Notes: a model not told the origin generated them from the letters alone. A stretch of 64,000 bases of DNA from Candidatus Kaiserbacteria bacterium (GCA_963767115.1 CAVYCR010000005.1:89582-153581); one strand, 5' to 3'; positions 4,447 through 56,670 are shown, numbered from the stretch's first letter. Numbers and translations: made by a program.

Positions 4447-4520
4447 AATTAGGGTTATTTTTTACGATTGTGCGCTTATAGCTTCTTCTGTCTTGTTTGC
4501 GCCCCCCCTCACCACGCAGA

Positions 4521-8677: not shown

Positions 8678-10408
<1,731 letters not shown>

Positions 10409-10417
10409 GTCGAATCA

Positions 10418-10768: not shown

Positions 10769-10771
10769 ATA

Positions 10772-11401: not shown

Positions 11402-11408
11402 ATGGTCA

Positions 11409-13340: not shown

Positions 13341-13530
13341 TTAAAAAGTATATCACGCGCAGCATGAGCGAACTGGTTCTGTAACGAATTGGAGACAATC
13401 TGATTGTCTACACATGATGCATTCTTATACTTCAAGAGCTGATGTTAGCAACAAAAAAAGAAAATCCCCGGGCCCAAGTGACAAAGTGTCACGGATTCCG
13501 AGGATTCCGTCCGCCAGCGGCGGACAAAGT

Positions 13531-16262: not shown

Positions 16263-16354
16263 GCCGGACACCCGAAAGGCACTCACGGCTTCTGAGCAAT
16301 GTCTGAGCGGAGCGAGTTGCGGAAGAAGCCGTGAGTGCCTTTCGGGTGTCCGGC
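16263..16354. repeat. perfect 30-bp inverted repeat with a 32-nt loop
   Basis: gccggacacccgaaaggcactcacggcttc (16263-16292) is the exact reverse complement of 16325-16354. Confidence 0.95.
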
Positions 16355-33922: not shown

Positions 33923-34327
33923 ATGTGTGATATATATGGCTTGGGAAGAACCATCTTGGAGGAAAAGATGTTCTACGTCATCGCACTGGCCGTTATTTTC
34001 GTAGTAGGTATATTTATCGGTTTTATCCGATGCATAAAGAAGTACACATTTCGAATTTTCACCGAAATGCCGGTTATGCAGTGGATTCCATACCACGAAA
34101 TATCGTTTCGCTACTTCGATAATGCTGACTTTTGGACTAGGCTGATCCTAGATGCCCTATACAGGCGCAACTTTATTGAATGTAGGATTATGGAGGGGTT
34201 TGAATGTGCATTCGATATCACTAATCGAACGTTCACTTCTTCGGATATCGAGGTATGTGAGTTCAGGCTTCGCTTCAGGCCACGCAAGAAAAAGTATACG
34301 TTCAATATTGTGCCTCTAGGAGCGTAG
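33923..34327 (+). CDS. hypothetical protein (low GC)
   Basis: ORF track. A terminator-like hairpin lies at about 34383-34410. Confidence 0.4.
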   Translation: MCDIYGLGRTILEEKMFYVIALAVIFVVGIFIGFIRCIKKYTFRIFTEMPVMQWIPYHEISFRYFDNADFWTRLILDALYRRNFIECRIMEGFECAFDITNRTFTSSDIEVCEFRLRFRPRKKKYTFNIVPLGA

Positions 34328-34438
34328 GAACAAGAACCTCAAATGGCTCTTAACACGCTAAAGAACTAATCTTGCTACTGATGCCGGCCCTTGTGCCGGT
34401 ATTTTCTTATTCATTGGGGAAAAAATAGCTGCCCCTCC

Positions 34439-35347
34439 CTAATGATCCTCGGCTCGCAAGCCAAGCTCGAGAACGACAACAGGGGTGTGAATGTGAAGCG
34501 CGGGCTTCGGACGCGCTGCGAGATGGGACTGCGCCCCGGCGTCGCGCCAGTAGGCTACAGCAACGAGAAACATGCGGATCGGAAATGTCATGCGGTAGTA
34601 GATACCGTGCGAGCGCCCGTTATCAAGCAGATGTTCGAGAAGGTCGCGAACGAGAAGTACAGCGGCCGAAGGCTTCATCAATGGCTGAAGTTCGATATCA
34701 ACTTCAAGAGTCGTGGCAATAAGAATATGACGCTCAGCAGCGTCTACGTAGTTCTACAGAACCCCTTCTACTACGGTGTATTCGAGTACCCGGAGAAGAG
34801 CGGCAACTGGTATCAGGGCAAGCACGAACCGTTGATATCCAAGGAATTATTCGAAAAGGTACAGGCGCAGCTCAAGCGAGACAACATACAGCGCGAATCG
34901 CACGAATTCGCCTTCACCAAGCTCATGACCTGCGGCAAGTGCGGATCATGCATCAGTGCTGAGGAAAAATACAAACAGCGAAAAGATGGCACGACCGCCC
35001 GCTACGTCTACTACGGATGCGGACGCACTCGCGACAAACAGTGCAAAGGCAATACGTATCTACGAGAGGAGGAACTCGTAGAGCAATTGCTCAAGATCAT
35101 CGATCAGATCGATATCAACCAGATCAACGTGCAAATGAAATTCGAAGACGAATTGAAACGGCACAATAAATTCCAGCGTACGGTACTTGGACTCTCAGAC
35201 CCGAGTGCAACGCATGAGGAGATCAATATCCGGACCTATGCAAAATACATTCTCAAGGAGGGCACGAATGAGGAGAAGCGCGAGTTGATGGGATGCTTCA
35301 AGTCGAAGTTGAAGATCATGAAAGGGGTTGTGACGATAGAAATCTGA
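34439..35347 (+). pseudogene. 5'-truncated large serine recombinase (lacks the catalytic resolvase domain)
   Basis: Collinear with residues from about 143 to the end of the recombinase at 51974-53305, with an offset of 17961 bp. The 3' ~560 nt are near-identical. Homology starts abruptly at ..LMILGSQAKLENDN. Confidence 0.8.
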
Positions 35348-35368
35348 TCCGGTATTATTGCGGAGTCT

Positions 35369-36751
35369 CTATTTCTTATTTAAGTGCTGAACCACTTTAG
35401 AAACAGCTGCGACTTTCTTCTTTAAGCGACGCCCCCGTTTCAGGATAGAGATTTGCTTTGGTATTGCAGGAGCATCGAGAACCGACGCAGTACGCTTGGC
35501 ATAGGCTAGGAAGTTATTTTTTGGAACGCCGAATTTCTGATGAAGTAGTCGCTTCGGTGGTCCAGAACGGCCTTTCGCAAATGCCCCGATCACTGCCCTC
35601 CGCGTCAGCTGATTCATGCGCCGGTCGAACCGTGCGATAGACCCATGTCGCAAGCTCAAGTTTGTCCCATCGGAAACGATCCCGAGGTATTGGATCTGCG
35701 CGGCAATACCAGTGATCGGATCGAGTGATTGCACAACACCATTGTTCACGACACATATGCGACGCACCGTCTTCTGTTCCTTGATTTGAAGTCGAAGTTT
35801 CTTAATCTCTCCCATGACTCTTTCTTCGATCTGCGAAGAGTATTCCGGCGGACAGACGATTAGGATATCATCGGAATAACGTCGATAGAGGCCACCAACT
35901 TCACTGACGACCTTGGCGATTTCTGTATCAAAGTCCAGCATGTAGACATTTGCGAGCGTGCAGCTCAATGCTGCTCCTTGCGGTATACCCTTCGTTTCGC
36001 TTCGCACCTCCTGTAGGTGCCTATCGATTATCTTCGATTTGAATTCGTGCGGAAGAACGATGCGGGACTGCCCGCGCTGCTTCGCATGCACCACCAAATC
36101 GCGCATCCGGCCCTGGCGAACAAACCTATATTTTGTGACTGATCTGAATACCGCCGTATGATCCGCAGGGAGGTTCTCTGCACCGAGAATCTGCGCCCAC
36201 TTCTGTCGTAGCAAGTCATGATCAATCTCCTCATAAAACTTTGATACGTCGAGTGCAATGACTGCGCAGGGAGCGTGATCCCGCATGAATGTAAATGCGT
36301 CTTGCGCGAAGTGAGCCGTACTCATCGCGGTGAACCCGTCGACTGTCTTGATCGCCCGATATGCGATGACGTTGGTCCCTATGCCCCTAATAGCAAGTTC
36401 TGATTCGTATGCATCAGAAATAAGGTTTGCATACCACGAATAAACAAGAGCATCTCCATGAGACGCATAGTCGATAGGTCGTCTCTTGATCTCTCGTTCG
36501 CGATGCCGACTTCCTTTGACGCGGTTTTTCGGATGCCTGAATCGATTCTCTTTGGCATCAATTCGTATGAATGGATAAAACGAGTGCCTCGCTACATTTT
36601 CAGGCTGAAGCATTTCGAGCGTTCTATTTCGGTCGAGCGTCGATATACGACTATCAAAATGAAGGTATTGACGCTTTGCTCGTCGGTCGGGTCGGCGTTT
36701 GAGTTTGTCAGCTTCTTTCTCGAACCATTGTTCCCATTTTGCAGTATTCAT
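35369..36751 (-). CDS. stand-alone reverse transcriptase, Abi/UG (defence-associated) type, not retron, group II or DGR
   Basis: RT motifs RRPIDYASHGDALVYSWY, ALDVSKFYEEIDH, GIPQGAALS, YRRYSDDILIV and YLG. No maturase, endonuclease or retron VTG features were seen. Confidence 0.8.
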   Translation of the reverse strand: MNTAKWEQWFEKEADKLKRRPDRRAKRQYLHFDSRISTLDRNRTLEMLQPENVARHSFYPFIRIDAKENRFRHPKNRVKGSRHREREIKRRPIDYASHGDALVYSWYANLISDAYESELAIRGIGTNVIAYRAIKTVDGFTAMSTAHFAQDAFTFMRDHAPCAVIALDVSKFYEEIDHDLLRQKWAQILGAENLPADHTAVFRSVTKYRFVRQGRMRDLVVHAKQRGQSRIVLPHEFKSKIIDRHLQEVRSETKGIPQGAALSCTLANVYMLDFDTEIAKVVSEVGGLYRRYSDDILIVCPPEYSSQIEERVMGEIKKLRLQIKEQKTVRRICVVNNGVVQSLDPITGIAAQIQYLGIVSDGTNLSLRHGSIARFDRRMNQLTRRAVIGAFAKGRSGPPKRLLHQKFGVPKNNFLAYAKRTASVLDAPAIPKQISILKRGRRLKKKVAAVSKVVQHLNKK

Positions 36752-37219
36752 AATTCAAGTACACCCGACACCCCCTGGGCTCCTGGTGCCTCAAGGCTAG
36801 CGCCTTTGGTCAGGGGTGTGGGCAGCGATTCGCGAGGACGTTCGAGACGTCGTTTACCATCTGTGACGGCCAGGAAAATAAAACGTGTACATTATAATTC
36901 ATGCAATGAACATGACCGAACGATTCATACACCTTGCGATGCATGCCGTGGCTGCGTTCCTGCTGATGACATCGAGCGATAATCCTCGCGGATTGACTCC
37001 TATCAACTTCATGCCCCGTGAACACTAACGAACACGGGGGCTCGCGAATCGGGCACTAAGGCCACATTTGATATTACGCTTCCTAGTTACGAGGTCAATA
37101 TTGAAAACCCACTCGAACACAAGCGTAACGGCAGATGATCTGAAACATCACCCTACAAGAACATGAAATGCGGTTCTTTCGAATCCTTTGCCCTCTCTAG
37201 ACTTATCGAAAAAGTGACG

Positions 37220-37301
37220 CATAACCGGCGCTCAAAATAAGGCTCGGCATAGCACCGATAACAAGTACTGACTGCGGGGTGTTTGGTACGAGGTTGGAAC
37301 T
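37220..37301 (-). repeat. att-like scar: copy of the tRNA-Ser 3' flank plus a degenerate tRNA 3'-like motif
   Basis: cataaccggcgctcaaaataaggctcggcatagcaccgataacaagtact compared with 54692-54746, about 85-90% identical by eye. It is followed by gtgtttggtacgaggttggaact. Confidence 0.65.
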
Positions 37302-37304
37302 AGT

Positions 37305-37835
37305 TTAGGTTAAAAAACCCTTATTTCTACCGTCATCAACAATTTTATCCAACTCTTTTAAGTATTCTTCACATATAGAGAATATGTCTTCGTCACCCTG
37401 CCAGTCACTAAAAGTATATTTACTTGAAATAATCCCGTTATCGATAGCACTTTGGAATGGTTGAAATTTGCCGATCGACTGCCCTTTTATATTTCCATCC
37501 TTATCTTTGTGTACCATTGATACAGAATCGCTAATATGTATAGTTTCTGATAGCATCAATGAAATATCGCGTTTAAACTCAAGAGGTTCAGTGTGAATAT
37601 TGAAATCTCTTTTGTCTTTCAAAAAATCTACTACCTTGTTGTTTGTCACTTGGTTGTCATACCATCTTTTGCCATCATCTTTAGACTCAGCTTCTTTTAA
37701 AGCATATTGTAAAACCGATCGAGAAGATGATAAAAAAGCACTTAGATTAAATTTAAAACCTTCTCTATTTTCTTTCTCTTTTACCATCTGAGAGTAAAAG
37801 TATTTTGCTTCAAGAAGCTTATCTATTTCATTCAT
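37305..37835 (-). CDS. hypothetical protein (low GC cassette gene 1)
   Basis: ORF track. AT-rich codon usage unlike the flanks. No domain recognised. Confidence 0.6.
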   Translation of the reverse strand: MNEIDKLLEAKYFYSQMVKEKENREGFKFNLSAFLSSSRSVLQYALKEAESKDDGKRWYDNQVTNNKVVDFLKDKRDFNIHTEPLEFKRDISLMLSETIHISDSVSMVHKDKDGNIKGQSIGKFQPFQSAIDNGIISSKYTFSDWQGDEDIFSICEEYLKELDKIVDDGRNKGFLT

Positions 37836-37848
37836 GCTCTTTACGGAC

Positions 37849-37873
37849 GTGTATTTGGTACGAGGTTGAAACT
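37849..37873 (-). repeat. second copy of the 23-25 nt tRNA-3'-like motif
   Basis: gtgtatttggtacgaggttgaaact compared with 37279-37301 gtgtttggtacgaggttggaact. Confidence 0.6.
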
Positions 37874-37904
37874 CTCTTAGGATAGAAGAACTTAATTTAG
37901 TTGC

Positions 37905-39131
37905 CTATTCTCGCGCCTTATATATTTCGAGGAAAAGCTGCGATAGTTCATTGATACCCGAGGTCTGGATACCTTGCCCCTTAAAAGAAACTGGACATCC
38001 TCTTCCTCTGGAAGGAAGTCGATCAAGCTCTTGATCTTGAGCTTCTTTAATTTCACCCGTTGAGAGTGCTTGCTTTATTTTCTGCATCTCATCAAGAATA
38101 TGAGGATTAAGAATAAGCTTGCCTTGTGCATCTTTTTGTACAAGTTCGGAAAGATATTTTCCCATCAAAGAGAAAGGGCCGATATAGCCTGGTGGAGCAA
38201 GATATCCGAGCTGATTTGGCAATTCAGCCTTTATTAAATCCTCGATAAACTTTTCTGAATCATCGTAGCCATCTTTTTTCTCTGACGAGAGTTGAGCGAC
38301 AGCTTGACCCAAAGTAACTATACCTTCTTGTAATGCCTTTAGCGCAGCCATACTCATATCATTGAGTAGGCGGAGGTCCTCTTCTCCGCGAGCAGTTTTT
38401 GCAAAAATATCTTTATGTGCTTCAACTAGCTGCGCAGATTTTTCTTCTAGAACGGAGGTGCTCTTGAGCATAATTTCGACTGTTTCGTAAATCTTCTTTG
38501 CTACAGTTGGTCCATATTCGCCAACAGGAATAACAACGAATGGCGGGAGCATTTTACTATTTTCTTTTGACCACGACTTGCCAAACAAAATCTGTGGGGC
38601 ATTTTTTACTTTAAATTTTTTATCCCATATTTCCTGCTCGTTGTTGAGATGCCCGGCATTATGCTCGGCAAATGCTGCGACCTGAGCGAAAAGTGGACTT
38701 ACGGATTCTGAATTAAAGCCCTTTTTCATTTCTTCAATAATTACTTCGATATGATTCTCAAAATGTATTTCACTCATCGGAGAATCTTTACGATTGGTTC
38801 GTCTTAAAAATTCCTTATATCCAATCCCTCCAATCTCTTGATTTCTTAGTAATGACGGTAATTCATTCATCCCAAAACCTAAGAAGTCCATACAGCTTGT
38901 CAAAGAGGAATAATTTGGACTCATTTCCGGTTTATATTCTTCAAGTTCCAGAAATTCGGGATTTGGTTTTGAAACTCCATTCTCGCGCACGGAGGAAACA
39001 TAGTCGCCAATGAATGGCGTAAGAACATTTCGCAAAACTCGCAAATGTTCTACCGCCTCTTTCTTATCAGGAGCCTTCTCGTCATTTTTAGGATGATCGA
39101 CTTCTCTTGCCGACAGTTTTTCTAGTCCCAT
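37905..39131 (-). CDS. hypothetical protein (low GC cassette gene 2)
   Basis: ORF track, 408 aa. No domain recognised. Confidence 0.6.
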   Translation of the reverse strand: MGLEKLSAREVDHPKNDEKAPDKKEAVEHLRVLRNVLTPFIGDYVSSVRENGVSKPNPEFLELEEYKPEMSPNYSSLTSCMDFLGFGMNELPSLLRNQEIGGIGYKEFLRRTNRKDSPMSEIHFENHIEVIIEEMKKGFNSESVSPLFAQVAAFAEHNAGHLNNEQEIWDKKFKVKNAPQILFGKSWSKENSKMLPPFVVIPVGEYGPTVAKKIYETVEIMLKSTSVLEEKSAQLVEAHKDIFAKTARGEEDLRLLNDMSMAALKALQEGIVTLGQAVAQLSSEKKDGYDDSEKFIEDLIKAELPNQLGYLAPPGYIGPFSLMGKYLSELVQKDAQGKLILNPHILDEMQKIKQALSTGEIKEAQDQELDRLPSRGRGCPVSFKGQGIQTSGINELSQLFLEIYKARE

Positions 39132-39260
39132 GTTCCTGATTGTATCAGATATCCCTTATCACTGGGATACCTCTTTACACTTGATATTCAACAGTGCTTA
39201 ATATGTCCTAATGTCTCTCAAAACCCACTACGGGGGCAGTCGTCTAACAGCTACAGACAA

Positions 39261-39317
39261 GGGCTCGACATAGGTCCGATACAAAATACTACGGGCGGGC
39301 ATCCGACGTTTCGAACT
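39261..39317 (-). repeat. pseudo-tRNA-Ser 3' fragment plus flank copy (att scar)
   Basis: The minus strand reads GTTCGAA-N11-CCGCCCGTAGTA. It has the same length and ends as the tRNA T-loop-to-3'-end plus flank (GTTCGAATCCCTGCCTCTCCGCCCGTAGTA). Confidence 0.7.
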
Positions 39318-39785
39318 TTCTACATCAGGCCCCACAAGGGTATTTTGACGATAAATCCTGATCAAAACCGAGGTGTCAGCATAGGGATGCGCAATCAGCG
39401 AAATCCCCACAAATCCCTTTTTTGACGACTTTGCATAGTGATCGTGATCGGCAAAAAAGCGAGCTTTATAGGGAAAAACGATCAAATTCAGAGACCAGAC
39501 TCATTTTCAAGATAGGGATTTCGTCTGTTGCGGTGTGGTCGTTTATTTCGGCCTCTGTTGGGTGTACAATAAATCCACCATTGACCACTAACAGACCCCG
39601 TTAGGGGTCTTTGGCATTTATAGCCGGTTCGATTTGGCACCGCCCGCCATCGGCGATATGGGTTAATTAACTAATGAGTGCTAGAACAGCACGCGATCCG
39701 GAAACACGACCGACAGCTGCGCCATGATCCCTGACCAGTTGCACACAGTAAAACTTCTGCTCGATGTGATATCCGTGCCAAGATA

Positions 39786-42700
39786 TCAATTTGACAGATG
39801 AGTTCCGCACAGATCGATTTCTTTCATGACATCTATAGTACCTTTGAGCGAGACAACCATCTTCTCGTAGTTCTCGAATTCAGCGGTGGTTAGCTTCTGC
39901 CCCTTACGATCCTTGAGATATTTTTGTGCGGGTTGGTATCCGCCGATATAAAACTCCCACACATCTTTTGGCACACCGTCCCAATACTGCGAGGCATTGA
40001 TATAGACGCGACCGTCTGAATAACTTATCTTGTCGACAATGTCCGACGATGCAATAGGAAATGTCGTGATCGGTGTCTCGACGAGAGGGTCAGTCAACAG
40101 ATGCATCCCTCGCAACTTCCTGCCGAGCGGCACGAGCCGCCAAAACTTTTCTTTATCTTTCGGATAGGGCACGCGCGGAAAATCACTCTTCAAGAACTCG
40201 GCATACGTTGCTCGATATGACGGAGAGTGCAGCATTGCATATACATAATCAAAAATGTCTTCCGGCCTCGTCGGACCCACAGTAAGTTCTATTTTCAGAA
40301 CAATCATTGGATCGAGATTCGGCTTCTTCTCGCCCTTTTTGTAGAGATACAGAGGGGATATATAATTTGTCTCTTTAATCGATACCCGGCGGGCGTCGGA
40401 AATCTTATCGGTCAAAAATATGTCAGCAAAATCGCGAGACCCCTCAATATGCTTATTTGATACAAGTCCGACATTATCACCATCTAGGAAATCATGCATT
40501 ACACTTCTTCGTGAACGCTCAATAAAATCATCGCTGTAGTAAATATATTTTTGATCAAACGGTCGATACGATATTGGTACGATATTGTGCGCATCAAATG
40601 TATGCTTCTGTGCGTTCACTATTTTCCATTTCTGATTTTCACCGAGCGCATATTTGCGTACCGCTTCGTTTGGAGAAATCATAAGAAAATCTTCTATCCG
40701 CTTGGCGAGTACGTCTTTAGATTGATCGATTACGAATGCATCGCGCGAGGTAACGATGCCGACCGTGTTTATTGGGAATAATTCTGCAACAGAAAATCCC
40801 TGCAAATAATCGCTCTTGCCCTCACCTTCCACCTTCCAAGTATCAGCGTTCTCCGGAAGTTCGTTCCAAACAATCGTATCAACCGTTCCCATCGTGAGTG
40901 CTTCGAATTTCTCTGAGCGCAAACCAAACAGATCAGCTTTGAAAATCGTTGCGAGCGGCTTCCTTTTTTTCTTGTCGCCGAGCCGTTTCTTGATGCCAAA
41001 AAATATCGAGACACCCGTCTTGATGTCGAAGACATTTTCGTCTTTTCCGCCGTCCTGTGTCGTCTCTTTCTTGTTGCTGTTGCCGTGCAAGTCGAGCACA
41101 TAGATCGCATCGAAGGTGTCGCGCAAGTGCCAACGCATCCCGCGGAATGTTGGGTTGTCGATGTAGCCGTGCGAGGTGATCATGCCAACAATTCCCTCGC
41201 CATTTTTCTCGATCATTGTTTCGGCGAAGCGGATGAACTTTACATAATCATCGTTGATCCATTTGCTGTTTTTCTCTTTCAACTTTTCTTTGCCACCCGG
41301 TTCGACCTTGTATGCATCGTTAGCCGTATAGTGAGGATTCATAGATTCGCCTGAGTACGGCGGATTGCCCATCACGACCATGATCGGATACTCGCGTTTG
41401 ACACGCGAGGCAAGGCGGCTTTCCTCGGCAATACTCTCAACCGCACCGAAGAGACTATGGATGAGCGGGATGTCGTGCGCTTCGTCAAGCGTGTTGGTGA
41501 GATAGACGCCGAGCCGATGCTTGAGATCGTTGAGGCCGGTGTGCTTCAGTGTCATGGCAATCTTGAGATGCGCAATCGTATAGCTCGCCATCATGAGTTC
41601 AAATCCATGCAGGCGCGGTAAGAGATCATCTTCTACATATGCGCCCCAACGACCCTGCGCGCCCTTCTGCGATTCGTGGATGTGCGTGATCGTTTCGTTG
41701 AGGAATGTCCCTGTACCCGTCGCCACGTCGAGAAGTTGTACGCGATGTGTGTCGATATCAACTCGCTTCTCTTTCCCTTTATCGAGCACCGTCGTCGAAC
41801 GCTCGATACGAGAGTTGTCAGCGATACCCTTGCTGATGCCAAACTCCCGTTTCAAGAGGTCGTCGATGCCGCGGATGATGAATCGCACCACCGGAAGCGG
41901 TGTATAGAAGACACCCATTTCCATCTTCTTCTGCGGATCATATTCACGCAGGAAATCTTCGTAGAAATGTATAACGGGGTCGGGCAGGTCGGCATTCACA
42001 TCTTTGTTCTTGAAATATTCCTCCATGAGCGCCTTCACATCGGCGTGCGTGAAGACTGTGCACAGTTCGTCGACAATGACGCTCAGACGTCGCGGGAAAG
42101 ATGTACCGGCAATATGATCGAAGAAACTTTGTAGAAACGGGTTGGTTTTGGGGATGAGACTTCGTGCTTCTTGGCGGTTGAATGTGTCGGCTGTCGGATC
42201 GTTGTAACGCGCGGCGAAGAGACCATACACGATTGTCTGCGCATACATGTCGGCGAAGTCGGTGGTCGTGAAAGTCGTGATGAGATTTTCCCGAATGAAA
42301 CGCATCATGCGTTCGAGCTCATCCTTTTCTTGGCTCGTGCTTTCAAGGAACGCGATCACGTTGTCACGTATGCGCTGCGCCTTGCCGCCCATGATGCGCG
42401 CGAGGTGTGCGCCGCTTTTGATCGGCTCTTTCTGCGACTCGACGAAGTCGTGCATGGTGCGCGCAAGCCGCTCGCCCTGGCCCGGGTGCGGGATGAACGT
42501 GCCACGCTTCACATCGACGGTTGCGAGGCGCAAATGTTCGTCGTATGGCTCGCCATTGCGATAAAATCTAAATTCGCAGTAGTCACTGATGATGAGGTTG
42601 GTGTAGCCGAAGTACCGGCTCGCCTGCGAGGACTTCTCGATCTTGTTGAGGTCTTCACCGACTTTCTTCACTTCAATATACAAAAGAGGAACATCGTCTT

Positions 42701-42914
42701 TCAGCACGATGAAATCGGGCTTGTTGCCGCTCTGTGCTTTGGGATCGTGTTGAATGTGAAAGTGCCCGCTCGCAGGAAAGACGGAGCTGAGATAATTCTG
42801 AAACGCGGTTCGGTATGACATCTCCGAGCTGCTCACGTCATGAAAATAGCTTTCGACCGACGAGAGATAGGTATTGACATTGGGACCATTGTTAATTGTT
42901 CGTTCTGAGGTCAT
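39786..42914 (-). CDS. type IIG/IIL (MmeI/Eco57I-like) restriction-modification enzyme: PD-ExK nuclease plus gamma N6-adenine methyltransferase plus TRD
   Basis: N-terminal KPDFIV..x..IEVKK, AdoMet motif LDVATGTGTF and catalytic VMGNPPYSGE. 1042 aa. Confidence 0.85.
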   Translation of the reverse strand: MTSERTINNGPNVNTYLSSVESYFHDVSSSEMSYRTAFQNYLSSVFPASGHFHIQHDPKAQSGNKPDFIVLKDDVPLLYIEVKKVGEDLNKIEKSSQASRYFGYTNLIISDYCEFRFYRNGEPYDEHLRLATVDVKRGTFIPHPGQGERLARTMHDFVESQKEPIKSGAHLARIMGGKAQRIRDNVIAFLESTSQEKDELERMMRFIRENLITTFTTTDFADMYAQTIVYGLFAARYNDPTADTFNRQEARSLIPKTNPFLQSFFDHIAGTSFPRRLSVIVDELCTVFTHADVKALMEEYFKNKDVNADLPDPVIHFYEDFLREYDPQKKMEMGVFYTPLPVVRFIIRGIDDLLKREFGISKGIADNSRIERSTTVLDKGKEKRVDIDTHRVQLLDVATGTGTFLNETITHIHESQKGAQGRWGAYVEDDLLPRLHGFELMMASYTIAHLKIAMTLKHTGLNDLKHRLGVYLTNTLDEAHDIPLIHSLFGAVESIAEESRLASRVKREYPIMVVMGNPPYSGESMNPHYTANDAYKVEPGGKEKLKEKNSKWINDDYVKFIRFAETMIEKNGEGIVGMITSHGYIDNPTFRGMRWHLRDTFDAIYVLDLHGNSNKKETTQDGGKDENVFDIKTGVSIFFGIKKRLGDKKKRKPLATIFKADLFGLRSEKFEALTMGTVDTIVWNELPENADTWKVEGEGKSDYLQGFSVAELFPINTVGIVTSRDAFVIDQSKDVLAKRIEDFLMISPNEAVRKYALGENQKWKIVNAQKHTFDAHNIVPISYRPFDQKYIYYSDDFIERSRRSVMHDFLDGDNVGLVSNKHIEGSRDFADIFLTDKISDARRVSIKETNYISPLYLYKKGEKKPNLDPMIVLKIELTVGPTRPEDIFDYVYAMLHSPSYRATYAEFLKSDFPRVPYPKDKEKFWRLVPLGRKLRGMHLLTDPLVETPITTFPIASSDIVDKISYSDGRVYINASQYWDGVPKDVWEFYIGGYQPAQKYLKDRKGQKLTTAEFENYEKMVVSLKGTIDVMKEIDLCGTHLSN

Positions 42915-43084
42915 GATGGATGCTTCTTACAGGGCTCAATTGTAGCATTTTTTAGCTTATTATGAAGAGGTTACTTACCAACTCCGAGAGATATCCGAAT
43001 ACTCGGGCCTCTTTCGGGTATATAAGCAATACAGCACAAAATCATCAATTGAAAAAGGGCTAAATGGGCGTACATTAAGGATAT

Positions 43085-44881
43085 ATGGGAGCACAAAAGA
43101 TGACCAAGAAAACAGGTGCGGCAACGCCCTCGCTGATCAAAGAGCAGCTGCTTCCCGAATTCGCTTTCGTCGGATACTGCAACAGCGATGACGCGAACAA
43201 ATACACGTCGAGAGCTAAGACCATCGATATCCAGTTCGTACGCGCCGCGCGAGATGAGGGTCTGCTCATACCCCTTTATTCGGCAGAAGGGCCCGTACGC
43301 AAGCCGGATGGGAGCGTCAATAACGAGATCGTCGATTACTATAGCCCGCTTCAATTTTTCATAGTCACTCAGCTGCGCAAGAATATCGTTCTGAATGGCA
43401 GATTGTGGGACCCTGAGACTGTCGAGTGGTACCCAGAGAAGCCGATGGAGGAACGACCGCGATTTATTTCATGGGGAGGAGGATTTTCATTCTCACCAAG
43501 GGATGTCGGCGATCCGGCACGCAAAAAAAGTGACGACGTCCTGTTCAACGCGTATTTATTCACGGCGACATTCGATGCCCTTCTCCGCTTTATCCATGCA
43601 ACACCATTGAAAGACAAGTACAAAATGCCGATGGACGAAAGTGATATGTTCGAGAGTGTTGCGACATTCAATCATGATCTGACGGCAGTCGTTTCGATTC
43701 CTGATGAATTAAAGCAGTATCGGCTCGATGCGAAGAAACTTAATTTCCTGAGGGCACATATCGCTCAGGCTGCGGCAGTTATTGACCCCCTCGAACTCTG
43801 GTATTACTACATCGACCGGCACCCGAATTCAAAGAAGAGCTTCCTCAAGGGCGACGCGCGAGTCGCGCAAAAGCTCTACAAAATCTACAATCTCATTACC
43901 GACGTCTGGCAACGAGTGACAGACGAGGAATCCAAACCACTTCTCGAACTCGTCGCAGGAGAAATCGGCAGTGGATATCTCACTCCACGAACGGAGTATT
44001 TGCATGGCATGGATGTTCAGGCAATGCGGCATAGTATCAATGGCTTTACTGTATGGAGTCGTATTCGAGGTAACGGTAAATATGTAACGGCGCAAATCCG
44101 TGAAGCGCTCGCCAAGGCTGTGACCGATTTAGACGACTTCGAAAAGCGATATGGCGATCGCAATTACGGCGGCAACTATCGTATACGAGAAGATCACGGG
44201 GTACGGTACGATCAGCTCGACAATGTCTCAAAGGCACGTTTTGACCAATGGCGTCTGCAACGTCACGATGCGGAAGAATGGGAGACAATCGAAGACGTTA
44301 TCGACTATCGCATCCATGAGATACAACGTGCATTGTCGACGGCGTACCATGCTGTCGGTTCACAACTACGTAACATCACCGCTGAGGCATGGGATATGCC
44401 GAAGCATTTCAATCATACATTTTGGATGCAACACCCCGTAATGTCTCAGGAAGAGCGAATGAAAGTGTTCCAAAAGGAGTCAAAGCGACTTACCGCTCAT
44501 GCGCGCGCCTGTCAGGAAAAAGAGCGCGAATTCTGGGGAGCTGTCTCATCAACGCGACTCGCGTTTTGTAAGATCTGCCGCAAACGGCCGATCCAGCTAC
44601 ACGCCGACACACGCAGTTTTGACTCACAGCCATCGATTTGCGATACGTGCGTGAAGGAAAAGAAGACGTATCCCGATACTACAAAAGGCGCGGAGTGGCT
44701 ATGTGATTCCTGTGGTCACGTCATTTACAAATTCGTTCATGGAAATACGTTAAGCGCACGCACACAGACCGGCACAGCAGTCGTGATTGAATTGAAATAT
44801 GGGAACCTCTTAGTCGAAGCGACGTGTCCAAAATGTAAAAATACCTTTGAGAAATCAATCGAATTCGGGTGGCTACCATGA
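43085..44881 (+). CDS. hypothetical 598-aa protein with C-terminal zinc ribbons
   Basis: CKICRK..CDTC and CDSCGH..CPKC pairs. Divergent from the R-M gene. Confidence 0.6.
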   Translation: MGAQKMTKKTGAATPSLIKEQLLPEFAFVGYCNSDDANKYTSRAKTIDIQFVRAARDEGLLIPLYSAEGPVRKPDGSVNNEIVDYYSPLQFFIVTQLRKNIVLNGRLWDPETVEWYPEKPMEERPRFISWGGGFSFSPRDVGDPARKKSDDVLFNAYLFTATFDALLRFIHATPLKDKYKMPMDESDMFESVATFNHDLTAVVSIPDELKQYRLDAKKLNFLRAHIAQAAAVIDPLELWYYYIDRHPNSKKSFLKGDARVAQKLYKIYNLITDVWQRVTDEESKPLLELVAGEIGSGYLTPRTEYLHGMDVQAMRHSINGFTVWSRIRGNGKYVTAQIREALAKAVTDLDDFEKRYGDRNYGGNYRIREDHGVRYDQLDNVSKARFDQWRLQRHDAEEWETIEDVIDYRIHEIQRALSTAYHAVGSQLRNITAEAWDMPKHFNHTFWMQHPVMSQEERMKVFQKESKRLTAHARACQEKEREFWGAVSSTRLAFCKICRKRPIQLHADTRSFDSQPSICDTCVKEKKTYPDTTKGAEWLCDSCGHVIYKFVHGNTLSARTQTGTAVVIELKYGNLLVEATCPKCKNTFEKSIEFGWLP

Positions 44882-44948
44882 TGCTCCTTGAAGGATGAGC
44901 TGCGGGATTATTCGGGTATTTCGAACCTCGATTTTATAAATCTATACT

Positions 44949-45989
44949 TTATATCCCAGCTTCTTCCCTTAATCCTCTCGCATTGCCGTGGCCCAATAAT
45001 CCCCGATAAGATTGACGGACCACTTCGTTTTCCTGTTCTCCCAATTTCCGAAACATTCGGCGTTTTGTGGCAGTCCGAAGTACGCGATGGTCAGGAAAAT
45101 GCACCCACCCGAGGAAATCGACGCCCGAGGCGAGCGAACTGATAAACAGCTTGTTGGGATGAAGCGAGAGTTTGAGGCGCAATTCGAGAAACGAGGCAAT
45201 CTGCGGGACGAGCGTTTCAAGTTTTTCTTTGTCGTCTGAAAGAATCACGAAATCGTCTGCATAACGAATGTAGCAGTTCGCTTTTACCTTGTGCTTCACG
45301 AATTGATCGAACTCGTTCATGTATACGTTGACGAGCAGTTGCGATGTGAGATTGCCGAGCGGAAGACCCTTTCCTTTTTCAGTTGTGTGGAAGCTTCCTA
45401 CAATTTCTGCAACAAGATTGACGATACGTTCGTCTGGAATATATCGTGCAACTATTTCAAACATTATGGCTTGGTCGATCGAAGCGAAGAACTTTCGTAT
45501 GTCGCATTTTAAAACCCAGCACGTTTGCGTTTGATTCTTTGAAACTATCCATGCCATCGCGCGAAACCGATTCATCGCGCGATGCGTTCCCTTGTCTTTC
45601 CGACACGAATACGAGTCGGCAATAAACGTGCGATTGAAAAACGGAAAGAGCTTCCGATACAGTGCGTGATGTAGAAGCCGATCACACACGCTTGCCTTAT
45701 GTATGTCGCGCGGCTTCGGCTCGGCAATCTTGAAGGCGTGGTATTCGCTATGCCTATATACGCCGTTAGCGAGGTCTCGATGGAGCGCAAGAATGTTATC
45801 CATCAGCCGGTATTGGAATTCCTGCACGTCTTTCTTCTTTCTTTTGCCGCGTAGGAATTCCTTCCATGCGGCGAGCAAGTTTTCGACAGAAATGATATCG
45901 TCATAGTTATGACCGAAGTGGATGCCTTTAACGTACCCCCCCCCCGCACGAATCTTGCCTGTTATTGAGCATGGAGTATCAGTGTACAA
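44949..45989 (-). CDS. diversity-generating retroelement reverse transcriptase
   Basis: DGR hallmark LGNLTSQLLVNVYMN (I/LGxxxSQ) and YIRYADDFVIL. Adjacent TR, VR and Avd. Confidence 0.9.
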   Translation of the reverse strand: MYTDTPCSITGKIRAGGGYVKGIHFGHNYDDIISVENLLAAWKEFLRGKRKKKDVQEFQYRLMDNILALHRDLANGVYRHSEYHAFKIAEPKPRDIHKASVCDRLLHHALYRKLFPFFNRTFIADSYSCRKDKGTHRAMNRFRAMAWIVSKNQTQTCWVLKCDIRKFFASIDQAIMFEIVARYIPDERIVNLVAEIVGSFHTTEKGKGLPLGNLTSQLLVNVYMNEFDQFVKHKVKANCYIRYADDFVILSDDKEKLETLVPQIASFLELRLKLSLHPNKLFISSLASGVDFLGWVHFPDHRVLRTATKRRMFRKLGEQENEVVRQSYRGLLGHGNARGLREEAGI

Positions 45990-46302
45990 GCAGTGGCATG
46001 AATACCGAGAGGACTTTCCAAAATCATCCCGCTATACACTCGGCGACAGGATAGACCTTCTTTTTGTTCATATTCTTGAACTACTATTTACCGCAAGTTA
46101 CCAAAGCAAGGAAGCGAAGCTGCCGACACTCGAGATGGCGGTACGAAAAATTGACGTATTGAAATTCCTGTTACGCGTCGCATGGGAGCTTCGGGCACTC
46201 GACACGAAAAAGTACGCGGTGCTATCGGAAAAATTAGATGAATTTGGTCGAATGGTCGGCGGTTGGAAGAAAGGACTGGGAACCAAAACTCCCGCCAGAT
46301 AG
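45922..46302 (+). CDS. avd: Avd-like accessory variability determinant (four-helix-bundle, 23S rRNA IVS protein family)
   Basis: ..FPKSSRYTLGDRI......ILE....A.......K...L......ID.LK.LLR.A.EL......KY..L...LDE.GRM.GGW.K pattern. 126 aa. Confidence 0.75.
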   Translation: MPLTYPPPARILPVIEHGVSVYKQWHEYREDFPKSSRYTLGDRIDLLFVHILELLFTASYQSKEAKLPTLEMAVRKIDVLKFLLRVAWELRALDTKKYAVLSEKLDEFGRMVGGWKKGLGTKTPAR

Positions 46303-46328
46303 TAGAGGCGGGAGAAACTCGGTAGTTT

Positions 46329-46443
46329 CGGGAGAGAGAACCCGATTGCCGGCGTTCCACCTGTTGTCGTCGCGGTTCCACGTGTTCACGTTCCACTTCG
46401 AGTTGTCGGCGTTCCAGTTCACGTTCACGACACAGGAACTCTC
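46329..46443 (-). other. DGR template repeat (TR)
   Basis: About 113 nt collinear with the VR. It encodes the AAC-rich SSCVVNVNWNADNSKWNVNTWNRDDNRWNAGNRVLSP. It differs from the VR only at its adenines. Confidence 0.9.
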
Positions 46444-46757
46444 GTATCCGAAGCCGTCTGTGCCACCACCCATCGAATACTCTACGGGCTGTATCTGATT
46501 CGGGGCATCGAAGCCCGCTGACCTCGGATACCAACTGACCAATGTTTTTGTGGAGACCGGCTACGCACACTTCCTTAAGCCGTGGCCGAAAGAATTCTAA
46601 CGAAGCCGTTTCCGAAATCTCCGCGCTCAAGCCTTAACCGGAGCGCCACCAGAAATTTCATATGTAGTATATCAAAAAGAAAATCCCCGGGCCCAGTGAC
46701 AAAGTGTCAAAGGGTCCGAGGATTCAGCTCGCCAAGGGCGAGCAAAGGTGCAGAGGG

Positions 46758-47417
46758 TCAGTTGGCGGGAGAGAGAACCCGAACGCCGGCGCTCCACCCG
46801 AGGCCGCCGCGGTCCCACGTGTTCACGCCCCACTTCGAGCTGACGGCGCGCCAGAACACGAACACGACACAGGAACTCGTGTAGAACAGGTTGGCGTAGC
46901 CGTTGTTCAGCAAATCGCCTTCCTTGCCCTCGGGCTGTTTGGAGATCATCTCGGCGACGACGGCGCACAGCGCGCCCTCGTCCCAAAGGTGATTCTTGGG
47001 CAAACCGTTTTCGATTTCCTTGTCCGTCAAGTCCGCGCCGAGTTCATCGACATTGACCTTGAAGGTAGTGCCGGTGTTGATCGGCTTCGCCAACTTGACC
47101 ACGCGAGTCTGGAAGTCGTCCCAGACGTAGAGTCCGTCGCGCGTCTTGAAGAAGGCGTCGGGGTTGCGATGGTCGGAGTCGGTAATCGTGATGGAAAGCT
47201 GCGGACGGCGGATGAGTGCCATCATGCTCTTAATTACATCTTCGATAGCGGTTTCGAGCCGTCCCGCGAGGATTTCGGTCTTGTCCTTGATCCCCGCGAG
47301 CACCACCTTGGGATCGCCGAATTTCGCGGCGACTTTCGGCAATGCGACCGCGAGCGCACTGGTAACGTTCGAGTTGAGTTCGGCCATCTGGCCGGGACTG
47401 AAGGCTGTTCCACTCAT
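46758..47417 (-). CDS. DGR variable (target) protein
   Basis: The C-terminal 38 aa are encoded by the VR. It is a paralog of 13531-14004. Confidence 0.85.
   Translation of the reverse strand: MSGTAFSPGQMAELNSNVTSALAVALPKVAAKFGDPKVVLAGIKDKTEILAGRLETAIEDVIKSMMALIRRPQLSITITDSDHRNPDAFFKTRDGLYVWDDFQTRVVKLAKPINTGTTFKVNVDELGADLTDKEIENGLPKNHLWDEGALCAVVAEMISKQPEGKEGDLLNNGYANLFYTSSCVVFVFWRAVSSKWGVNTWDRGGLGWSAGVRVLSPAN
46766..46880 (-). other. DGR variable repeat (VR)
   Basis: Offset +437 from the TR. There are 19 substitutions, all at TR A positions (plus-strand T), and 0 at the roughly 85 non-A positions. Confidence 0.9.
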
Positions 47418-47593
47418 GGTGGCTGTTCCTTACAAGTGCTGCTGGTTCCTCGGCGATTCCAAGGTTTGCCTCAGCGGAAAATGCCCTCAATGTAAGGCGC
47501 TTTCAGCTGTGGCAAAGACCCTTTTTCAAAGAACAGAGACTGGTATTATAATACAAATAGAAACGATACGCAAGTACCCGCGTATTGGCGAAC

Positions 47594-47623
47594 TTGCATC
47601 ATAAATGTCCTGTGATGTATAAT
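47594..47623 (+). promoter_or_regulatory. candidate sigma-70 promoter (TTGCAT-18 nt-TATAAT)
   Basis: TTGCAT at 47594-47599 and TATAAT at 47618-47623. Confidence 0.4.
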
Positions 47624-47678
47624 TCAGGGACAATTCAATAGCTACCTACGCGGTAGCCGCGGTGGTCGAGAGAAAGGA

Positions 47679-47723
47679 CCGCCAACGACCTGAGCTTTTT
47701 TGCTCGGTTGTTGGCGGTTTTTT
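47679..47723 (+). terminator. terminator/attenuator hairpin with T6 tail upstream of the ParB-methylase gene
   Basis: ccgccaacgacctgagc / gctcggttgttggcgg stem followed by tttttt. Confidence 0.5.
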
Positions 47724-47775
47724 GCTGCCTTCAGCCCCACAAAGCTCAGGTCATTAGAAATGTAATGACCAATGC

Positions 47776-49065
47776 ATGAAAAAAGTAACAAAAACGAATC
47801 TCACATGGAAAACGGAAAAGCGCATCATCAGCCAGCTCATCGGCCACCCGAAGAACCCGCGCAAGATGAGCGAATCGCAGATGCGGAATCTTCAAGAAAG
47901 CCTCAAACGGTTCAATCTCGTCGAGATACCTGTAGTGGATACCGATAACACGATATTGGCTGGACACCAGCGGTTGAAAGCGATGCAGCTTGCCGGACGC
48001 GGCGAGGAAGAGATCGACGTGCGCGTACCCAATCGAAACCTCACCGAAACAGAGCGCGAGGAGTATCTACTGCGCAGCAACCAAAACACGGGAAGCTGGG
48101 ATGAGGAATTACTCAAAGCGATGGACATGGACATGCTTCTCGACGTCGGTTTCGGCGACGACGAGCTGCAAACCATCTTCGATGATATCGATGTCATCGA
48201 GGACGATTTCGACGTCGAAAAAGCGCTCAAGGAGACAAAGGTTGCTCGGGTAAAACCAGGCGAACTGTGGCAGCTCGGCAGCCACCGTCTCCTCGTGGGT
48301 GATTCAACCGATGCCGAACAGGTCAAAAAACTGATGGGTACCGACCGAGCGGATGTCGTGTACTGTGACAGCCCGTACAACATCGGACTCGATTACTCGA
48401 AAGGAATCAGTACCGGCGGCAAATACGAAGGTACCTACACAAGCGCGAAAGATTCCAAGAAAGACGTGGCCTTCGGCGCATTTCTCGATGCGAGCATGAA
48501 AGCCGCGCTCTCCGTGGCCAAGCCAAACGCACACCTATTATATTGGTGCGACGAGAAGTATATCTGGCTCCTGCAATCGCTGTATCGAGAAAATGGCATC
48601 GACAACAAACGCGTCTGCCTGTGGATCAAGAACAACTTCAACATGACTCCGCAGGTCGCATTCAACAAGGCATACGAGCCGTGCGTGTATGGAGTTATCG
48701 GCAAGCCATATCTCAACAGTGAACTGCGCAATACCAACGAGCTTCTGAACAAAGAGATCGGATCAGGTAATCAGGTGCACGAGGAAATCCTCGACATATT
48801 CAATCTCTGGCTGGCACGTAGGGATAACGCGCAATCATATCAGCACCCGACTCAAAAGCCGGTCGCGCTCAACGAGAAGCCACTGAAGCGTTGCAGTGCT
48901 CCGGGACACATCGTGCTCAGCGGCTTTGCCGGTAGTGGAAGCGATCTCATCGCATGCGAACAGCTCAATCGCAAGTGGCGGGGTGTCGAGATCGATCCGA
49001 TCTTCGCCACCGTCTGCATCGACCGGTGGGAGTCCTTTACCAACCAACGCGCGACACTCATATGA
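47776..49065 (+). CDS. ParB-like nuclease domain fused to an N4/N6 DNA methyltransferase
   Basis: ParBc motif ..HPKNPRKM...L..SL..F.L...PVV......ILAGHQRL, then DSPYN, HPTQKP and FAGSGS methylase motifs. Confidence 0.85.
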   Translation: MKKVTKTNLTWKTEKRIISQLIGHPKNPRKMSESQMRNLQESLKRFNLVEIPVVDTDNTILAGHQRLKAMQLAGRGEEEIDVRVPNRNLTETEREEYLLRSNQNTGSWDEELLKAMDMDMLLDVGFGDDELQTIFDDIDVIEDDFDVEKALKETKVARVKPGELWQLGSHRLLVGDSTDAEQVKKLMGTDRADVVYCDSPYNIGLDYSKGISTGGKYEGTYTSAKDSKKDVAFGAFLDASMKAALSVAKPNAHLLYWCDEKYIWLLQSLYRENGIDNKRVCLWIKNNFNMTPQVAFNKAYEPCVYGVIGKPYLNSELRNTNELLNKEIGSGNQVHEEILDIFNLWLARRDNAQSYQHPTQKPVALNEKPLKRCSAPGHIVLSGFAGSGSDLIACEQLNRKWRGVEIDPIFATVCIDRWESFTNQRATLI

Positions 49066-49811
49066 GCGTCGAGCAAGGAGATATCTTCTCCGTCGGTGAG
49101 CACATCATCGCGTGCGGCGATTCGCTCGATGCGACATTCGTGAGTAAGGTCATTGGAGACAAAAAGATCAGATGCATTCTCGTTGATCCCCCGTACGCCG
49201 TCTCCTACGTCGAGGGCAAGCGAGATTTCAACAAGCTGGGCGTGAATACGGACAAAGCGATCATCGGCGATCAGCTGCAATCCGACGAGGAATACGCTCG
49301 CTTCACGGGAGCGTGGCTCGAGGCGGTAAAGCCGCACCTAGAGCCGTACAATGCCTGCTACATCTTCAACAGCGATCTTATGTACCCTGCGCTGCGCCAA
49401 GGCATGAAGGATGCCGGGTTCTATTACTCCCAAGGTCTGATATGGATCAAGAATACGGTTGTCCTCGGCAGGAAAGATTATCTCCCCATGCACGAGCTCA
49501 TCGCGTACGGCTGGTGCGGCAAACACAAGATGGAACGCAGCAAAGCAAAAAGCATACTCTTCCACCCAAAACCAGCTGCATCGAAACTTCATCCCACACA
49601 GAAACCCATCGGACTCCTGCGTAAATTGATACCGAATTCGACGCGCCTGAGAGACTACGTGTATGACCCCTTCTTAGGCAGCGGGAGTACCGCTGTCGCC
49701 TGCGAGCACCTCGGCCGAAGGTGTGTCGGGATAGAAATTGATCCTGCGTACGCGGGAATTGCAATAGCGCGTATGGAGAAGCTCACCGGACTTGTCGCGC
49801 GAAAACTATGA
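49062..49811 (+). CDS. N4/N6 DNA methyltransferase (beta class)
   Basis: VDPPYA, HPTQKP and DPFLGSGST motifs. ATGA overlap with the upstream gene. Confidence 0.85.
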   Translation: MSVEQGDIFSVGEHIIACGDSLDATFVSKVIGDKKIRCILVDPPYAVSYVEGKRDFNKLGVNTDKAIIGDQLQSDEEYARFTGAWLEAVKPHLEPYNACYIFNSDLMYPALRQGMKDAGFYYSQGLIWIKNTVVLGRKDYLPMHELIAYGWCGKHKMERSKAKSILFHPKPAASKLHPTQKPIGLLRKLIPNSTRLRDYVYDPFLGSGSTAVACEHLGRRCVGIEIDPAYAGIAIARMEKLTGLVARKL

Positions 49812-50191
49812 GCGACGCCGTACCACCACAAAACAGAGGACGTGGCGCGTACAAGGCACGTGAATTCGAGACGTATCTCAAATGGAGAGCGCTGCCGCCA
49901 AGCTACCGCGACATGCCGCGCCAGTCGCTCGAAAAGATGGGGTTTGATGAGAGCATGCAAGACCTGCTTGAGATCAAATCGCAAAAGGCATTTGCAGAGC
50001 GATACAGCGTTGATGAAAGCACGCTCACTGAATGGAACGTGAGGATCGACCGCGACGGACTGCTTGATGATACACGCGCATGGATGCGTTCGATGACCCC
50101 GCTCGTATTCGGATCATTACTCAAAAAGATTGTTAAAAATCCGCACTCAAGCGATGTACGGCTGTGGCTTGAGTACGGAGAAGGCATATAA
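49808..50191 (+). CDS. hypothetical protein (possibly HTH / small-terminase-like)
   Basis: ATGA overlap with the upstream gene. The similarity judgement is weak. Confidence 0.4.
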   Translation: MSDAVPPQNRGRGAYKAREFETYLKWRALPPSYRDMPRQSLEKMGFDESMQDLLEIKSQKAFAERYSVDESTLTEWNVRIDRDGLLDDTRAWMRSMTPLVFGSLLKKIVKNPHSSDVRLWLEYGEGI

Positions 50192-50203
50192 CCGCACATC
50201 AAT

Positions 50204-50413
50204 ATGGAACACGAATTACTCACCAAATCACTGACTCCCGCGGAAGTGACAATACTGCTTTCACAGGCCATGCACGACCTCAAGAATCGAAAGATTACCC
50301 TGCGGCAAGCGCTTGCTCTTTCCCGCGTGGCGACCGCATTGGTAAAAAGCATTGAGACGGCTGAACTCAAGGCACGCATCGAGCTTCTCGAGCAGACGCT
50401 CAAGAAACGATAA
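50204..50413 (+). CDS. small hypothetical coiled-coil protein
   Basis: ORF track. Confidence 0.4.
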   Translation: MEHELLTKSLTPAEVTILLSQAMHDLKNRKITLRQALALSRVATALVKSIETAELKARIELLEQTLKKR

Positions 50414-50417
50414 CATT

Positions 50418-51890: not shown

Positions 51891-51973
51891 AATAGTTACC
51901 TCCTTGTATTCAATAGACTTGTGGCGAGGGTTGCGGCATTGCTTGTGATGTAGCAGCTAAATACCACAAGCAT

Positions 51974-53305: not shown

Positions 53306-53310
53306 AAACT

Positions 53311-54588: not shown

Positions 54589-54691
54589 TAGGCCACATGA
54601 TAGACCTTTACTGAGAATTAGGGAATGTCGCAGTAATAAATCAGAAAGTTCGAATCCCTGAACGGTCTCTAGATTTTCCAGAGATTCGTTA

Positions 54692-54746
54692 CATAACTGG
54701 CGCTCAAAATAGGACTCTGCATAGCACCGATAAAAAGTACTACGGG
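54692..54746 (-). repeat. tRNA-Ser 3' flank (reference copy of the att-like repeat)
   Basis: See the copies at 37220-37301 and 39261-39317. Confidence 0.65.
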
Positions 54747-54834
54747 CGGAGAGGCAGGGATTCGAACCCTGGGAACCCTTTAGAGGTTCAACACATTAGC
54801 AGTGTGCTCCATTCGACCGCTCTGGCACCTCTCC
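54747..54834 (-). tRNA. tRNA-Ser (anticodon GCU), class II with long variable arm
   Basis: Hand-folded: acceptor GGAGAGG/CCTCTCC, anticodon stem GCACA/TGTGT with loop CTGCTAA, T-arm CAGGG-TTCGAAT-CCCTG. 88 nt. Confidence 0.9.
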
Positions 54835-54943
54835 GTGTCGTTGCATCGTACTCTATCATGGCGTTCTCTTCAATGCTTAATGATTACTTAATAGACCAGT
54901 GGTCAAAATGAAGAAAATACGGTATTGTTTAGAAATTCTAACT

Positions 54944-56584: not shown

Positions 56585-56670
56585 GCAAAATAAATAACGG
56601 GGGGAATAATTTTCCCGCTTCCGCCTGTCGTTCGGGTCGGGAAAATTATTCCCCCCGTTATTTATTTTGC
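56585..56670. repeat. 33-bp near-perfect inverted repeat (20-nt loop) between the MFP and RND genes
   Basis: gcaaaataaataacggggggaataattttcccg (56585-56617) is the reverse complement of 56638-56670. Confidence 0.95.

Follow-up and report, generated by a model that had tools for sequence, protein, structure and literature searches.

The region from 34.4 to 54.8 kb of the window, by which we mean the whole 64,000-nt stretch of Candidatus Kaiserbacteria DNA that was analysed, is likely to be a tandem accretion array built at the 3' end of a tRNA-Ser(GCT) gene, with a truncated recombinase gene as its fossil integrase. This gene (the left copy, 34439-35347, plus strand) is a 5'-truncated large serine recombinase (LSR) gene that has kept the Recombinase and Zn-ribbon domains and lost the catalytic domain. 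The elements of such an array would be built around a highly conserved LSR family of the Patescibacteria.

The two recombinase copies and the mosaic left copy

The complete LSR gene of the window (the right copy, 51974-53305, plus strand, with the repeat part at 52400-53302) encodes a protein of 443 aa with the domain order Resolvase, Recombinase, Zn_ribbon_recom (PF00239 at residues 28-172, E=1.3e-19; PF07508, E=9.5e-14; PF13408, E=9.3e-07). Thousands of full-length proteins were 70-98% identical to it, and those with a named source came from Patescibacteria (Parcubacteria, Paceibacterota, Kaiserbacteria, Adlerbacteria, Saccharibacteria and others). Full-length close relatives had a pairwise dN/dS of about 0.01-0.02 (e.g., 23:0 and 50.5:5.5 synonymous to non-synonymous changes). 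In the open literature searched, no description of this LSR clade in Patescibacteria was found. The best NCBIfam match of the recombinase was CcrB, at 117 bits against a cut-off of 900, and the protein is therefore not a member of the Ccr family.

In the left copy the domain search detected Recombinase and Zn_ribbon_recom only (PF07508, E=6.5e-16; PF13408, E=1.7e-07). The resolvase-type catalytic domain PF00239 was absent, as the first-pass annotation of this DNA had stated, and the left copy thus cannot be an active LSR. The geometry described there was reproduced as well: a 5'-truncated LSR gene lies in direct orientation relative to the complete copy, and the two regions (34439-35341 and 52400-53302) are collinear with a spacing of 17,961 bp. 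Their alignment is also ungapped and in frame. The translation of 34439-35341 corresponded to residues 143-443 of the ORF at 51974-53305, and at the protein level the two copies gave a single ungapped alignment of 301 aa with 83.7% identity (E=1.7e-166). When the window was compared with itself by blastn, 34760-35337 matched 52721-53298 (89.8% over 579 nt, E=0) and 34457-34539 matched 52418-52500 (81.9%).

Pairwise alignment of both copies showed that the divergence is not uniform. The first ~350 nt had been described as diverged, which was correct for 34541-34798 (58.5% DNA identity; 51% amino acid identity, 42 of 86 residues differing), but the divergence in this part is uneven, as 34439-34540 encodes an identical peptide (0 amino acid differences) at 77.5% DNA identity and with saturated synonymous sites. 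The description of the last ~560 nt as near-identical proved to be overstated. Codons 120-289 (34799-35305, 507 nt) were 91.7% identical at the DNA level, with 41 synonymous and 1 non-synonymous differences and a dS of 0.58, the last 12 codons had 72% DNA identity with 6 of 12 amino acids differing, and the longest perfect tract between the copies measured 107 nt (34796-34902 = 52757-52863).

The origin of the middle part of the left copy was traced by a metagenome scan with the corresponding peptide, which retrieved a group of LSRs (L087-L103) referred to here as the A-clade. These LSRs are full-length, and where their loci extend far enough downstream, most of them contain a tRNA-Ser there. 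The left-copy segment 34439-34795 (plus strand) was 80-91% identical in amino acids to the A-clade proteins and 50-56% identical to the right copy, and the C-terminus of the A-clade proteins was only ~60% identical to that of the left copy. The right copy showed the reverse pattern, with a C-terminus close to that of the left copy and a distant middle part. Synonymous divergence was saturated before ~34796 and amounted to 0.4-0.6 past this point. The saturation step, the switch of clade and the 107-nt tract together demonstrate recombination between related integrase genes. The mosaic is therefore real and, as the first-pass annotation had claimed, requires recombination between related elements. 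By comparison of these sequences, the left copy is a chimera of two clades. Its breakpoint lies at about 34796, within the stretch that codes for the conserved SGNWYQGKHEP, although the exact position of the crossover is one that we infer.

The relatives of the 3' part were found on a metagenomic contig, L001, which was reached via a protein with 98% identity to the right copy. It carries one element, in which a 598-aa ORF, two methylases, a 127-aa ORF, an ORF of ~490 aa and the full recombinase are followed by an RT on the opposite strand, a box of ~50 bp and a tRNA-Ser(TGA). Positions 4139-9795 of L001 corresponded to window positions 47638-53298 at 92%, that is, to the right element up to the recombinase. 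Positions 9218-11724 corresponded to 34760-37269 at 89% in one block, which comprises the 3' part of the left copy, the RT and the box. The homology between the left copy and L001 ran 1.9 kb past the gene, through the DRT2-like RT and then the terminal att-like box. Since recombinase, RT, box and tRNA form the native end of the element in L001, the left copy and its neighbours represent such an end.

The first-pass annotation had regarded the left copy as a duplicate of the resident recombinase patched by conversion, and the comparison with L001 speaks against this view. Local duplication and gene conversion, by which the left copy would have been derived from or overwritten by the right copy and the pair would be an internal repeat of one element, is an unlikely explanation. 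It would account for the 107-nt tract at 34796-34902 (plus strand), which starts at the breakpoint of the chimera, is 100% identical to the right copy and differs from L001 at 9 sites; given 42 differences in 510 nt, a perfect run of this length has a chance probability of about 0.001. It would also fit the C-terminal 169 residues, in which the two copies differ at one position. However, outside the 107-nt tract the nearer relative of the left copy's 3' DNA was L001 (93.1%, versus 91.7% for the right copy). In the L001-like 3' segment (34868-35347, plus strand) two perfect tracts of more than 100 nt (34868-34974 and 35130-35230) are common to the left copy and L001 only, the right copy differing from both within them. 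Moreover, the 1.9 kb downstream with DRT2 and box 1 matches L001 and not the sequence downstream of the right copy, and the middle of the left copy comes from another clade.

The 107-nt tract is longer than expected by chance and is bordered by diverged sequence. A short exchange between the left copy and the resident right copy is plausible from these alignments, and the right copy would have contributed no more than a small patch, by conversion or crossover. In the base-by-base comparison L001 differed from both window copies at 9 sites within the tract, and an unsampled relative could be another carrier of it. It is reasonable to suppose that the chimera itself arose by recombination between recombinase genes in tandem, the process that had been predicted for the present pair. 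The L001-like 3' part and its continuation into DRT2 and box 1 indicate a separate and older element of a tandem array at the tRNA-Ser, of which the left copy represents the tail.

Boxes, cargo and units of the probable array

The one tRNA gene of the window is an intact tRNA-Ser(GCT) on the minus strand (54744-54835), separated by 1.4 kb from the stop codon of the recombinase gene. Its 3' end points towards the island, and the tRNA gene is presumed to be the integration target. It was found by ARAGORN; a scan of the 64-kb window at the Rfam gathering threshold gave no match and missed even this tRNA. A motif search of the window located exactly three boxes (37255, 39276 and 54727), all in direct orientation. 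Box 3 (54692-54741, plus strand), the element-side att arm, directly abuts the 3' end of the tRNA. Box 1 (37220-37269, plus strand), a fossil element-end (att arm), was 90% identical to box 3 and 96% identical to the box of L001, and a decayed tRNA-3'-like piece follows it at ~37270-37300. Box 2 (39262-39298) forms, together with a degenerate tRNA-Ser 3' fragment, a second fossil junction (39262-39322, plus strand). The degenerate sequence that follows the two inner boxes is tRNA-3'-like up to TTCGAAC. Both inner fragments are strongly degenerate, and that of box 2 has about 18 of 26 positions in common with the tRNA.

Based on the three boxes and the degenerate tRNA-like fragments at the inner ones, the region reads as three units. 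Unit 1 (34439 to ~37300) contains the truncated recombinase, DRT2 and box 1, unit 2 (~37301 to ~39322) contains two unknown ORFs and box 2 and has no recombinase, and unit 3 (~39323 to 54741) contains a Type ISP restriction-modification (R-M) enzyme, a DGR, methylases, the recombinase, a 425-aa ORF and box 3, followed by the tRNA. The units are related and independently derived, as the left tail matches L001 at 89% and the middle of its recombinase comes from the other clade. At the level of the whole repeat, the junction at box 2 divides the 18-kb interval into two units. To the left of 34439, where the left edge of the island was sought, no further boxes or tRNA fragments were found, and the genes there had no homologues in related loci, with the exception of one Bro-N protein.

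The DRT2-like antiviral RT of unit 1 (35369-36751, minus strand, 460 aa) is intact and convergent with the left copy. It matched PADLOC Drt2 (E=2.3e-121) and the NCBIfam Drt2 model with 372.5 bits, slightly below the cut-off of 390, and was 88.7% identical in amino acids to its counterpart downstream of the full-length recombinase in L001 and the related locus L002, with a dN/dS of 0.11 against L001. The non-coding stretch of ~470 nt upstream of the RT (36752-37219) is conserved with L001 and is where the DRT2 non-coding RNA (template) would be expected. In the middle segment (37301-39261, minus strand), which lacks a recombinase, the ORFs at 37305-37835 and 37905-39131 had no family matches. 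The Type ISP R-M enzyme (39786-42914, minus strand) belongs to the cargo of the tRNA-proximal element. The DGR (44949-46878, minus strand) consists of an RT (44949-45989), a template repeat (46321-46441) and a variable repeat (46756-46878); 19 of the 19 mismatches between the repeats were at template-repeat adenines on the minus strand (thymines on the plus strand), and homologues of the DGR RT were present in 12 related loci. A stretch of 270 nt located 33 kb away (13455-13724) was 76% identical to the DGR target-gene region 46674-46939 and had no match to the template repeat; it could represent a paralogue of the target gene or an earlier target of the DGR.

Two N6/N4 DNA methylases are encoded with a 127-aa and a 512-aa ORF at 47776-51890 (plus strand). 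Of the 166 related loci fetched, 63-65 had homologues of the methylases, and wherever gene order was inspected (L001, L007 and L064) these lay upstream of the recombinase, which suggests that the methylases are a conserved backbone of the element; no partner nuclease was identified for them. The 425-aa ORF of unknown function (53311-54588, minus strand), between recombinase and box, fills the slot that is held by the DRT2 RT in L001 and in the left remnant, and the Kaiserbacteria contig L007 has yet another content in this slot. That the 425-aa ORF is a diverged RT was considered and rejected, as blastp showed no similarity. Unrelated to the island, the left end of the window contains tandem paralogous ORFs (4516-4995 versus 5238-5718 and 1553-1667 versus 2879-2993) with 85-87% DNA identity. 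Imperfect palindromes of ~90 nt, 83-85% self-complementary, are found at 16263-16354 and 56585-56670, the latter at the end of a HlyD-family gene and before an AcrB-family gene.

The association with tRNA-Ser was examined across the family in 88 loci with at least 5 kb of sequence downstream of the recombinase, counting a tRNA-Ser within 10 kb and on the opposite strand. It was present in 56 of the 88 loci (anticodons GCT in 23, TGA in 15, GGA in 12, CGA in 4, plus two unusual ones). Upstream of the recombinase, the count was 0 of 98 loci. In 55 of the 56 loci tRNA-Ser was the first downstream tRNA, and other loci had tRNA-Trp (9) or tRNA-Gln (6). The sequence TATCG was located 11-13 nt past the tRNA end for 44 of 69 such tRNA-Ser genes versus 7 of 82 other tRNAs. 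This linkage suggests that the LSR itself integrates at tRNA-Ser.

Orphan boxes and tRNA-like fragments recurred in many loci from independent assemblies. Locus L012 has orphan boxes at 12638, 14273 and 17100 and then an intact tRNA-Ser at 19410, and further orphan boxes with a tRNA-like fragment were observed in L008 (12570), L014 (13730) and L141 (13482 and 14469). The junction 'TACTGACTGCGG' is common to L008, L014 and box 1 of the window, so that some internal junctions may travel with composite elements.

An assembly artefact, in which strains were mis-joined at a shared identical k-mer tract and either the chimera breakpoint (34796) or the truncation (34439) was thereby created, is highly improbable. 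The breakpoint coincides with the start of the 107-nt tract, which is present twice and has a length comparable to assembler k-mers, and the related sequences derive from metagenome-assembled genomes. Past the shared tract, however, the left copy resembles neither the right copy nor a pure A-clade gene and instead continues coherently as a third, L001-like type as far as box 1, with the RT included, both flanks are unique within the contiguous 64-kb window, and arrays with orphan boxes occur in those independent assemblies too.

Growth of an accretion array at the tRNA-Ser would proceed as follows. At the tRNA side the order within an element would be recombinase, variable cargo slot, box of ~50 bp and tRNA 3' end. 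Newcomers would insert at the tRNA and displace older elements inward, and each insertion would leave a box and a short, decaying tRNA 3' fragment. The truncated recombinase, DRT2 and box 1 would then be the tail of the oldest visible element, with the left copy as its fossil integrase. At an earlier stage, homologous recombination in the SGNWYQGKHEP coding stretch may have fused two LSR lineages, joining the recombinase domain of one clade to an L001-like zinc-ribbon/coiled-coil, DRT2 gene and box. Later, a deletion or rearrangement at 34434-34439 would have removed the catalytic domain and everything upstream of it. We infer this order of events from the present arrangement of the array. Canonical LSRs recombine attP with attB and do not act on attP and a site that is already occupied; for elements to insert repeatedly beside a resident one, either the enzyme would therefore have to be permissive or an attB would have to be restored within the tRNA.

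State and fate of the truncated gene

The left copy begins within the alpha-E helix ('LMILGSQAKLEND'). As noted at first pass, its homology to the right copy starts abruptly and the truncation point adjoins a terminator; the start, at 34434-34439, was equally abrupt with respect to its own closest clade. The terminator-like hairpin and T-run (34380-34403, plus strand) belong to the preceding unrelated ORF (33923-34327) and end 36 nt before the truncation point. Between the hairpin and the ATG at 34442 no promoter-like site was found. With tblastn over the 64-kb window, an N-terminal recombinase fragment was not found elsewhere. An att site within the recombinase gene that was split by integration was rejected as a candidate, given that the window contains no N-terminal half and that the truncation points of other remnants differ.

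The frame of the left copy is open for 301 codons, from a conserved Met144 (ATG at 34442), and its score against the family HMM (552.6) is close to that of the right copy (556.7). In codons 120-289 the changes specific to the left lineage were 7 synonymous and 0 non-synonymous. The retained part of the left copy thus has no sign of decay, which implies either that the truncation is young relative to the observed divergences or that the fragment is still under selection. That the 41:1 ratio of synonymous to non-synonymous differences reflects particular selection acting on the left copy was considered and rejected, as full-length genes of the clade diverge with the same ratios; it is typical of this LSR family in view of the family dN/dS given above.

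Truncated relatives of the LSR were also found elsewhere. N-terminally truncated family members are P0124, P0131, P0140 (inside a 194-kb contig) and P0142, and N-terminal-only recombinase fragments were found in L004, L037 and L106. In L115, a 5'-truncated recombinase copy (2090-2926) lies 1.5 kb upstream of another recombinase gene. In L004, a stand-alone ORF of 183 aa (6406-6957) that comprises the catalytic domain only is located 3.4 kb downstream of a full recombinase.

It is very unlikely that the truncated ORF is functional and encodes a DNA-binding protein composed of recombinase domain, zinc ribbon and coiled coil, which would occupy box or att sites and, for instance, block excision or the entry of related elements. 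The open frame from Met144, the normal HMM score, the 7:0 lineage-specific changes and the recurrence of truncated relatives (the four proteins above and L115) are what such a role would predict. Against it stand the terminator 36 nt upstream and the lack of a promoter-like site. Furthermore, the truncation points vary among the remnants and N-terminal-only fragments occur too, as expected from random decay, and the clean substitution pattern fits equally well with a recent truncation in a family with a dN/dS of about 0.01. Similarly unlikely is an extended form of this proposal, in which the left copy is a retained att-site binder of two-clade origin that binds the conserved boxes and controls excision or superinfection within the array, and in which recombination between tandem integrases is a regular route for exchanging DNA-binding modules in this phylum-wide LSR family with specificity for tRNA-Ser.

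Most likely, the left copy is an inert remnant, because it has no catalytic serine domain, lies behind an upstream terminator and has no promoter-like site. That the remnant is inert and young, rather than maintained, is favoured by the terminator, the missing promoter-like site and the variable truncation points of the other remnants. It probably persists through its youth and its location beside a selected defence gene.

The first-pass annotation had also proposed that the repeat could mediate RecA-dependent deletion of the DNA in between. Such an event would have as its substrate a homology of about 0.55 kb (~91% identical, with a single perfect tract of 107 nt), in addition to the boxes (50 bp at 90%). 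Homology of this kind suffices for rare recombination events and is poor for frequent ones. As far as the sequence allows one to judge, homologous recombination between the copies could delete the 18 kb. The chromosome would then keep a decapitated chimeric recombinase beside the 425-aa ORF and the tRNA, and on the circle DRT2, the R-M system, the DGR and the methylases would be accompanied by a chimeric recombinase of full length. Exact-protein look-ups with both recombinase copies, the 425-aa ORF and the RT matched no contig.

Comparison with known systems

The left copy is an ordinary by-product of genomic-island growth, in bacteria that are little studied. Its context is more useful than the remnant itself, as it reveals a Patescibacteria-wide LSR clade with a fixed element-side motif and defence cargo. 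If the specificity of the LSR for tRNA-Ser is true, it would offer a defined integrase/target pair for bacteria with few genetic tools. The chimeric remnant also provides a concrete case of co-resident integrase genes exchanging DNA-binding modules.

Phage-type large serine integrases of the phiC31, Bxb1 and A118 class share with the right copy the Resolvase, Recombinase and Zn-ribbon domains and the position of the integrase gene near the element end. In contrast to these, the LSR of the window is short (443 aa), conserved across a phylum-level group and linked to tRNA-Ser, and it has no phage structural genes beside it, the cargo being R-M, methylases, DGR and DRT2.

The SCC/SCCmec composite islands of staphylococci, which use Ccr large serine recombinases and the rlmH site, resemble the array of the window in several respects. 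In both, LSR elements are arranged in tandem at one site and bordered by att-derived repeats, and there are units without a recombinase, decayed recombinase genes and reshuffling by homologous recombination between units. The array of the window differs in that its target is tRNA-Ser and not rlmH, and in having a single recombinase gene instead of a ccrA/ccrB pair.

In the tRNA-targeting arrays of Prochlorococcus (tycheposons and related elements), newcomers that integrate at a single tRNA displace older elements inward, partial tRNAs lie between units and fragmented integrases are left over (bioRxiv 10.1101/2020.12.28.424599). Of these elements, 910 of 937 use a tyrosine recombinase and the rest an LSR (bioRxiv 10.1101/2020.12.28.424599). 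The cargo of the Prochlorococcus arrays is rich in defence and adaptation genes, as is that of the window array. The latter is distinguished by a Patescibacteria-specific LSR clade and by an association with tRNA-Ser of any anticodon, and its fossil integrase is, in addition, an inter-clade chimera.
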